Of a stretch of DNA of 9,053 nucleotides, positions 6,001-9,000 are shown in pieces. The stretch lies in IMG/VR virus record IMGVR_UViG_2695420595_000001, one strand, 5' to 3'. A program made the position numbers. Position 1 is the first letter of the stretch, and every line of letters begins with the position of its first letter. The stretch is from a virus. Its lineage: Duplodnaviria > Heunggongvirae > Uroviricota > Caudoviricetes.

Positions 6001-9000
6001 GATTTTTCCAGTATTTGTAGATATTGCACTGAACACCGAATACGTAGCAGAGGGTGTCTACACGATAACGTGCTATGAGCTACCATGTTGTCGAAAAATT
6101 GTTTAGTGAGTATGACATCAGGAATGTGGTGGTCTGTTTTAATATTTCTATTTCTATTTCTATTTCTATTTCTATTTCTATTTGTTGTGATTTTTCTTTA
6201 GTTCATGTATTTCGATTTGTTTCTGAATTATCGGGGGTAGTGTCTTCCCTTTTCCCTGAGGCTTATCATGCAGTTATTTTCGCCATCTTGGTATTGTGGA
6301 AATACCGACATCCATAGCTTTGGTGAGCTCTGTTCAGGTGGCCAAATTCAGAAAACCATTACGGAGGAAGAAGGCGATGGCTAAACCAGCGCGAAGACGA
6401 TGTAACCGTAAAAGAGAAGATTTAACTGTTAAAAGGATATTTGAGTTACTAAGTTTCGATAAATCTACCGGGGTATTTAGATGGAAAGTTCCCACTCAGG
6501 GAAGGATAGCATTAAATAGTGTTGCTGGAACTTTTGATTCCAACGGTTATTCAATGATCATGATAGATGGGCGTAGATATAAAACTCACGTCTTAGTTTT
6601 TTACATAACTCATAATCGTTGGCCTGCTGGTCAAATTGACCACGTTAATGGAATTAGGACCGACAATAGGCCAGAAAATTTAAGAGAATGCCTGCCAATA
6701 GAAAATTCAAGAAATATAAGGATCCGAAAGAATAGCAAATCAGGTTGCAGAGGGGTTACTTGGCACAAACGACAGAAAAAATGGAATGTTAGGCTAGGAT
6801 TCCATGGCAAGAGTAAACACTTCGGATGCTTTGATGATCTGGAGTTAGCGGTACTAGTTGCTGAAGAAGCCCGAGATAAGTATTACGGTGATTTTTCCGG
6901 CAACGAAAGGAGCACTTATGCGAATCTATCGAAGGAAATGTAAATGTTGCAATGAATGGTTTATACCAAAATATCAAAATCAATATTGGTGTAATGAGAT
7001 TTGTGGAACCAAGATAGCACTCGAACGACGAAGTAAAGAACGCGAAAAAGCGGAAAAAGCAGCAGAGAAGAAACGACGACGAGAGGAGCAGAAACAGAAA
7101 GATAAACTTAAGATTCGAAAACTCGCCTTAAAGCCCCGCAGTTACTGGATTAAACAAGCCCAACAAGCCGTAAACGCCTTCATCAGAGAAAGAGACCGCG
7201 ACTTACCATGTATCTCGTGCGGAACGCTCACGTCTGCTCAGTGGGATGCCGGACATTACCGGACAACTGCTGCGGCACCTCAACTCCGATTTGATGAACG
7301 CAATATTCACAAGCAATGCGTGGTGTGCAACCAGCACAAAAGCGGAAATCTCGTTCCGTATCGCGTCGAACTGATTAGCCGCATCGGGCAGGAAGCAGTA
7401 GAGGAAATCGAATCAAACCATAACCGCTATCGCTGGACTGTCGAAGAGTGCAGGGCCATCAAGGCGGAGTATCAACAGAAACTTAAAAAACTGCGAAACA
7501 GCAGAAGTGAGGTTGCATGAATATCTACGAAAGAATTGATGGCAGCAAATACCGAAATATTTGGGTAGTTGGCGATCTGCACGGATGCTACACGAACCTG
7601 ATGAAAAAACTGGAGACGATAGGATTCGACCCCAAAAAAGACCTGCTTATCTCGGTGGGCGATTTGGTTGATCGCGGTACAGAGAACGTAGAATGCCTGG
7701 AATTAATCACATTCCCCTGGTTCAGAGCTGTACGTGGAAACCATGAGCAAATGATGATTGATGGCTTATCAGAGCGTGGAAACGTCAATCACTGGCTGCT
7801 TAATGGCGGTGGCTGGTTCTTTAATCTCGATTACGACAAAGAAATTCTGGCTAAAGCTCTTGCCCATAAAGCAGATGAACTTCCGTTAATCATCGAACTG
7901 GTGAGTAAAGGAAAAAAATATGTCATCTGCCACGCCGATTATCCTTGTGATAAATACGAGTTTGGAAAGCCAGTTGATCATCAGCAGGTAATCTGGAACC
8001 GCGAACGAATCAGCAACTCACAAGACGGGATCGTGAAAGAAATCAAAGGCGCGGACACGTTCATCTTTGGTCATACGCAAGCAGTGAAACCACTCAAATT
8101 TGCCAACCAGATGTATATCGATACCGGCGCAGTGTTCTGCGGAAATCTCACATTGATTCAGGTACAGGGAGAAGGCGCATGAGACTCGAAAGCGTAGCTA
8201 AATTTCATTCGCCAAAAAGCCCGATGATGAGCGACTCACCACGGGCTACGGCTTCTGACTCTCTTTCCGGTACTGATGTGATGGCTGCTATGGGGATGGC
8301 GCAATCACAAGCCGGATTCGGAATGGCTGCATTCTGCGGTAAGCATGAACTCAGCCAGAACGACAAACAAAAGGCTATCAACTATCTGATGCAATTTGCA
8401 CACAAGGTATCGGGGAAATACCGTGGTGTGGCAAAGCTCGAAGGAAATACTAAGGCAAAGGTACTGCAAGTGCTCGCAACATTCGCTTATGCGGATTATT
8501 GCCGTAGTGCCGCTACGCCGGGCGCAAGATGCAGAGATTGCCACGGTACAGGCCGTGCGGTTGATATAGCCAAAACAGAGCAGTGGGGGATAGTTGCTGA
8601 GAAAGAGTGCGGAAGATGTAAAGGCGTCGGTTATTCAAGAATGCCAGCAAGCGCCGCATATCGCGCTGTGACGATGCTAATCCCAAACCTTACCCAACCC
8701 ACCTGGTCACGCACTGTTAAGCCGCTGTATGACGCTCTGGTTGTGCAATGCCACAAGGAAGAGTCAATCGCAGACAACATTTTGAATGCGATCACACGTT
8801 AGCGCCATGATTGCCACGGATGGCAACATATTAACGGCATAATATTGACTTTTTGAATAACTTTGGGGAAACTTGACACCAATAATGGGCGTTTTTTACA
8901 TGTCATTGATGAGTCTCAATAACCTGCCGCCGAGTAGTTTTTATGCTCTGAATTGTATTTGTGTAGTAAACATGCTGACTGCAATGTAATAGAGTTTTTT

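Follow-up and report, generated by a model that had tools for sequence, protein, structure and literature searches.

The hexanucleotide repeat described here lies in a stretch of 9,053 nucleotides (the window) from a virus of the Caudoviricetes, IMG/VR record IMGVR_UViG_2695420595_000001. This (TATTTC)6.8 tract is the variable-number tandem repeat (VNTR) locus VNTR-9, also called O157-9, Vhec4 and TR1, of multiple-locus VNTR analysis (MLVA). The locus is therefore already known, and its use in typing is about two decades old. Public-health laboratories fingerprint Shiga toxin (Stx) producing Escherichia coli with VNTR-9, and it is reportedly part of the O157:H7 typing schemes of PulseNet, Lindstedt, Noller, Keys and Hyytia-Trees. 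The best explanation of the tract is that of a prophage-borne, hypermutable VNTR-9 microsatellite with a unit number that is most likely selectively neutral, a reading in which we have high confidence. In itself the tract is significant only as a typing marker. The initial annotation, made from the sequence alone, had correctly read the tract as a site of slippage variation and had not recognised it as VNTR-9/O157-9/Vhec4/TR1.

In the window the array has period 6, 6.8 copies, 100% matches, 0 indels and the consensus TATTTC according to Tandem Repeats Finder, and the raw sequence agrees. It consists of six perfect TATTTC units followed by TATTT, and base 6184 is a G. The hexamer tract annotated initially as (TATTTC)6-7 at 6143-6184 is thus real, whereas its seventh unit reads TATTTG and the array ends at 6183. 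It is the only long short-period repeat of the window. The self-match run at a lag of 6 extends over 35 bases, whereas 200 dinucleotide-preserving shuffles averaged 6.4 and never exceeded 10. By chance, about 1e-16 runs of this kind would be expected in the window. A chance origin of the tract is excluded. Its composition is 14.6% GC (85% A+T). The tract is housed in a gap of 550 bp that separates the start of a leftward open reading frame (ORF) for a protein of 590 amino acids (aa) at 5826 from the start of an HNH endonuclease gene at 6377. Its distance is 317 bp to the former and 194 bp to the latter. The coordinates of the ORF and of the Pfam domain confirm the divergent setting that had been proposed for it.

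The identity of the locus was established by its typing primer and by comparison with strain EDL933. The PulseNet primer VNTR-9F, GCGCTGGTTTAGCCATCGCCTTCTTCC, matches the window with 0 mismatches, and no such match is expected by chance. This oligonucleotide is printed as the forward primer of VNTR-9 and is paired with the reverse primer GTGTCAGGTGAGCTACAGCCCGCTTACGCTC (PMC3321953 Table A1; PMC8461963). In EDL933 the sites of VNTR-9R and VNTR-9F are 532 bp apart; the published size range of VNTR-9 is 474-614 bp (PMC8461963). The EDL933 amplicon of 532 bp contains a single tandem repeat, TATTTC x10.8. EDL933 and the window are alike in the unit and in the 14-bp left anchor, and also in the right flank except for one extra T in the poly-T run of EDL933. 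As the primer matches and this repeat is the sole one in the EDL933 amplicon, the tract is VNTR-9. In the literature VNTR-9, Vhec4 and TR1 are one locus with a 6-bp unit at Z3935/Z3936, 6-23 repeats and 15 alleles (PMC3321953 Table 1), with a diversity index of 0.90, the highest of eight loci, and 31.7% null alleles (PMC3321953). The O157:H7 form of VNTR-9 shares with the window the TATTTC unit, the left anchor, the right flank (save T5/T6), the HNH neighbour, the exact forward primer site and the hypervariability. It differs from the window in that 12 bp separate its array from a truncated IS30, whereas the window has an IS30-free form with the 590-aa gene at the left, which is apparently the ancestral one.

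Unit numbers were counted at 40 loci, comprising 32 prophage contigs of IMG/VR, one Stx1 phage record, six complete E. coli genomes and the window. A 33rd IMG/VR contig (L010) was left out because the contig end cuts the array. The number of units ranges from 4 to 17. The arrays of four O111 genomes have 11, 13, 14 and 17 perfect units, although the 1465 bp of flank (742 bp at the left, 723 bp at the right) show no mismatch; the array therefore changes much faster than bases are substituted. Strain ECO2947 aligns to the window with 100% identity, and has six more units (12 perfect units versus 6). In complete E. coli genomes the match spans differ by multiples of 6, with offsets of +1 and +2 because the poly-T run at 6191-6195 varies between T5, T6 and T7. 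This run, 7 bp to the right of the array, is a second, smaller, mononucleotide slippage site. Besides the consensus unit the variants TGTTTC, CATTTC, TACTTC and TAATTC occur, and sometimes identical copies of them stand next to each other, with three CATTTC in one locus (L029) and two TGTTTC in another (L034). Such adjacent copies are the expected product of unit-wise duplication. Serial passage yielded single-unit insertions at Vhec4 (combined rate 1.3e-4 per generation), and nearly all changes were of whole units (PMC3777172). Slipped-strand gain and loss of units, as the initial annotation had put forward, agrees with the range of 4-17 units at the 40 loci and of 11-17 in the O111 genomes, and had been published before (PMC3321953, PMC3777172). 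The comparison of copy number among relatives, which it had named as a check, likewise gave a variable and not an invariant number. A scan of one genome per species with the left anchor plus two units gave no match, a result that is uninformative on the spread of the locus outside E. coli.

We propose that the array sits in non-coding DNA of an accessory insert of the nin region, which would comprise the leftward 590-aa gene, the spacer and the HNH gene. The array is perfect, unstructured and AT-rich, so that nascent and template strands could realign by whole units in replication (slipped-strand mispairing). The rate of unit gain and loss would be on the order of 1e-5 to 1e-4 per generation, far above that of point substitution, and variant units would be born by point mutation and then copied by slippage. 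Arrays above a few units would renew their own length variation, and this, rather than control of a gene by unit number, would explain the persistence of the locus. Neither strand of the tract folds (free energy 0 with DNA parameters); with no secondary structure, simple misalignment is sufficient. Instability driven by a hairpin or triplex was considered and rejected, as neither strand folds and the unit is not purely purine or pyrimidine. The identity with VNTR-9, the variation, its whole-unit steps and the lack of coding constraint come directly from the data presented here or from the literature, whereas we infer neutrality from the absence of functional signals and, likewise, slippage rather than recombination.

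A strict scan detected no sigma-70-like promoter spanning or abutting the tract and none in 5750-6450. The best promoter-like match for the 590-aa gene (5956-5927) lies about 190 bp from the tract, and the relaxed scan otherwise gave weak consensus matches. The strict scan also showed a weak terminator-like site (6233-6249). The O157:H7 form keeps 12 bp of the left flank; beyond these a truncated IS30 takes the place of the original sequence, and the 590-aa gene is gone. The array still varies, and this lineage without the left gene is the one where the locus is most diverse. The idea that changes in unit number alter promoter geometry is not borne out by these results, as no promoter was detected at the tract, the best match for the leftward gene is that far off, odd or even unit numbers are not preferred and the variation persists without the left gene. 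Several points nevertheless limit the case for neutrality. None of the 40 loci has fewer than 4 units, possibly a hint of a lower bound, although a minimum of 4 units is also predicted by threshold-dependent slippage. The tract is transcribed within the rightward delayed-early transcript from PR that reaches Q, and its other strand may be transcribed as well, so that it may have an effect at the RNA level. The promoter scans are simple consensus matches, and the parity of unit numbers (21 even versus 19 odd, no preference) is a test of low power with n=40 and phylogenetically non-independent loci. The tract may still have a weak regulatory effect.

One form of such an effect would be a contingency-type regulatory repeat, in which each unit alters the spacing and the helical face (about 206 degrees per unit) and so tunes the promoter of the 590-aa or the HNH gene, as with the TAAA tract of Neisseria nadA. 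This we consider very unlikely. The tract is hypermutable and located in a divergent intergenic region, by geometry one 6-bp unit flips the helical face and would in principle make an efficient switch, and the AT-rich accessory gene to the left, whose function is unknown, is of a kind that possibly gains from variable expression. However, the two start codons are 317 and 194 bp away and the best promoter-like site about 190 bp, neither odd or even numbers nor any length within 4-17 units are preferred, the O157:H7 array is equally variable although IS30 has replaced its left side, and the HNH gene, as part of the PR-driven nin operon established for lambda, needs no promoter of its own. In the literature searched, we found no functional report on Z3935/Z3936. 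The tract resembles the contingency loci of Haemophilus and Neisseria (the TAAA repeat upstream of nadA, the TA repeats of the hif promoter) in being hypermutable and intergenic, in its position beside accessory genes and in its whole-unit changes. Unlike these it is not in or beside a recognisable core promoter, shifts no frame with its 6-bp unit, has no preferred unit classes and no known phenotype. Contingency loci either shift the frame within an ORF or act at a core promoter; here 6 bp keep the frame, the overlapping ORF is not conserved and the nearest promoter-like site is about 190 bp away. Should the repeat tune its neighbours, the finding of a contingency locus in a prophage of E. 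coli would be notable, but nothing in the results suggests this. A role at the RNA level is even harder to credit and appears highly improbable. It would require that the minus-strand (AAUAGA)n, a run of A-R-N triplets as bound by the distal face of Hfq, or the U-rich plus-strand (UAUUUC)n in the delayed-early transcript, tunes the binding of Hfq or RNase by unit number. AAU and AGA both satisfy A-R-N by motif resemblance, lambda biology requires transcription of the plus strand as far as Q, and the RNA would be unstructured and hence accessible, as folded with DNA parameters. The best leftward promoter-like site, however, is downstream of the tract and no minus-strand start is evident upstream of it, Rfam gave no family match in 5700-6500 at a permissive threshold, the range of unit numbers is unconstrained and the idea derives solely from the resemblance of motifs. 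That the unit number diversifies the expression of the 590-aa gene or of HNH/ninG/Q within clonal lysogens, be it by stochastic switching in half-turn steps or through an Hfq-binding (A-R-N)n leader of a leftward transcript, is very unlikely; if true, a standard typing marker would be a functional contingency locus of Stx-type phages.

The tract as intrinsically bent DNA, or as an iteron-like array of binding sites for a phage or host protein, is hardly more than conceivable in probability. Its T3 tracts are regularly spaced at 14.6% GC, and AT-rich DNA is a general target of H-NS-type proteins. However, units of 6 bp on a helix of 10.5 bp point in nearly opposite directions and therefore their bends cancel. 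The bend vectors sum up to at most about 0.8 of the bend of one unit for 4-23 units, whereas a spacing of 10.5 bp adds linearly. The tract is like phased A-tract DNA (of the kinetoplast type, or as curved DNA upstream of promoters) in its regular short T/A tracts and its AT-richness; it is unlike it in its period of 6 instead of 10-11 bp and in tracts of 3 instead of 4-6 bases, which leads to cancellation and not to curvature. Phased bends need A/T tracts about every 10-11 bp, and the suggestion of phased bent DNA from half-turn units thus fails. Iterons have a conserved number and spacing of sites and a cognate protein. Here the number of sites is free, with 4-17 units in our loci and 6-23 in the literature (PMC3321953), and no candidate binding protein was identified, so that the suggestion of a repeated binding site found no support either. 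The last alternative is that the repeat is coding, as a small protein with an (Ile-Ser)n segment varying in length in frame. An 80-aa ORF with an ATG start spans the tract, the 6-bp unit always keeps its frame, the Prokaryotic Genome Annotation Pipeline (PGAP) lists length variants as hypothetical proteins with accessions of their own, and the locus has been placed 'inside ORF Z3935/Z3936' (PMC3321953). However, at 35 loci this ORF has three unrelated outcomes, with the C-termini KYRHP or SSCISICF or a Phe-Leu frame, which the T5-T7 run (6191-6195) and an indel upstream bring about. In EDL933, IS30 removes its start codon and N-terminus while the array persists; in ECO2947, PGAP calls it frameshifted; it has no match in Pfam or PHROG, and inspection by eye showed no obvious Shine-Dalgarno sequence upstream of the ATG. 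We rejected the coding reading on this non-conservation and rate it as extremely unlikely; from its sequence the ORF at 6075-6317 is most likely not a gene, and its annotations look like spurious gene calls multiplying over a microsatellite. In RefSeq, PGAP gives each repeat-length allele a separate WP accession as 'hypothetical protein', and in ECO2947 it annotates a frameshifted pseudogene (positions concerned: 675-893 in L037-L040 and 7476-7663 in L002).

Table 1. Features at and around the VNTR-9 array, in coordinates of the window.
Feature	Position	Strand	Basis
Hexanucleotide microsatellite (TATTTC)6.8, MLVA locus VNTR-9 / O157-9 / Vhec4 / TR1	6143-6183	no strand	Tandem Repeats Finder, shuffles, related loci, EDL933 amplicon
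Left anchor, 14 bp, invariant, GTGGTCTGTTTTAA	6129-6142	no strand	Locus alignment; EDL933 and SMN197SH3 junctions
Poly-T run, T5 in the window, T6 or T7 in other loci	6191-6195	no strand	Locus comparison
Site of PulseNet primer VNTR-9F, GCGCTGGTTTAGCCATCGCCTTCTTCC, overlapping the HNH start codon	6366-6392	-	Exact match
ORF of 80 aa with ATG start, repeat read as (Ile-Ser)n	6075-6317	+	Translation; hypothetical protein or frameshifted pseudogene in some records
Best promoter-like match for the 590-aa gene, TTGACG-17/18-TAATAA/AATAAC	5927-5956	-	Relaxed scan, consensus only; below the strict threshold
Gene of the 590-aa protein, left neighbour, TTG start, AGGAGG upstream	4054-5826	-	ORF call, annotations, PHROG 9230
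HNH endonuclease gene, right neighbour (HNH_3 domain and weak AP2-like DNA-binding domain)	6377-6943	+	Pfam, PHROG 99, annotations

The reverse primer site GTGTCAGGTGAGCTACAGCCCGCTTACGCTC, which in the published assay lies on the other side of the array, is absent from the window. In EDL933 it is located inside the truncated IS30 (L036 4720-4750, within a coding sequence (CDS) at 4160-4900). The missing site thus reflects the assay and the O157:H7 lineage and not the repeat; the locus of the window is orthologous, but would not amplify. Because the VNTR-9 reverse primer sits in an IS30 remnant peculiar to the O157:H7 form, IS30-free loci such as that of the window would score as null alleles in the standard assay despite their variable array. 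At least 80% of the intergenic query is present in 245 records of complete E. coli genomes, O111 and O145 strains included. The IS30-borne reverse primer is a concrete candidate for the cause of the high rate of VNTR-9 null alleles (31.7%, PMC3321953). This is the one practically useful outcome of the analysis, and it concerns the assay.

In other lineages IS30 is found at 6130/6131, 12 bp to the left of the repeat, with GT (6129-6130) as an apparent 2-bp target duplication. Opposite ends of IS30 meet the locus at this one point, the right junction in EDL933 (L036 4900-4976) and the left junction in SMN197SH3 (L041 3170-3200), and both retain the GT. From these junctions, the arrangement would fit a single insertion of IS30 with a 2-bp target duplication and later loss of one side per lineage. 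Many matches to O157:H7 start exactly at 6143, and the repeat was for this reason considered as a mosaic junction. This was rejected, since the EDL933 sequence accounts for these starts by a longer array aligned to a shorter one; in addition, EDL933 carries the IS30 insertion.

The window represents the nin region of an E. coli prophage of the lambdoid, Stx type, with matches to the Stx1 phages SH2026Stx1 and AU6Stx1 (about 99%) and to hundreds of E. coli chromosomes. In the matching records the annotated order is ren, ninB, dam methylase, ninE, the leftward 590-aa gene, the intergenic region with the repeat, HNH, ninG, Ser/Thr phosphatase and antiterminator Q, and in the window the last three of these genes follow downstream of the HNH gene. 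The 590-aa protein has a full-length match to PHROG 9230 (function unknown) and no match in Pfam, PADLOC, NCBIfam or the PDB sequences. The GC content of its gene is 34.7% versus 51% for ninB-dam. AT-rich and oriented against the nin operon, the gene looks like a moron-like accessory gene of Stx-type phages. In the O111:H8 strains (L037-L039) it is annotated as a shorter CDS of 933 nt.

The region around the HNH start, which comprises the last upstream bases and the first ~30 nt of the gene (6360-6405 and 6395-6435), matches the ninF/ninG junction of many lambdoid and P22-like phages with 93-98%. Owing to this resemblance, the HNH cassette seems, as far as the sequence tells, to have entered at the 5' end of ninG and to have copied this end. 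An imperfect tandem duplication of 20 nt is present just within the HNH gene.

Further upstream, a run of 7 N at 1785-1791 directly precedes the second copy of a near-duplicate ren/ninB/dam segment. The near-duplicate pairs are 306-605 and 1792-2091 as well as 1127-1426 and 2832-3131, which are 98% and 96% identical, respectively, at unequal spacings of 1486 and 1705 bp. A true tandem duplication is the less likely reading of this segment, which looks like an assembly artefact or a scaffold join between two different lambdoid prophages.

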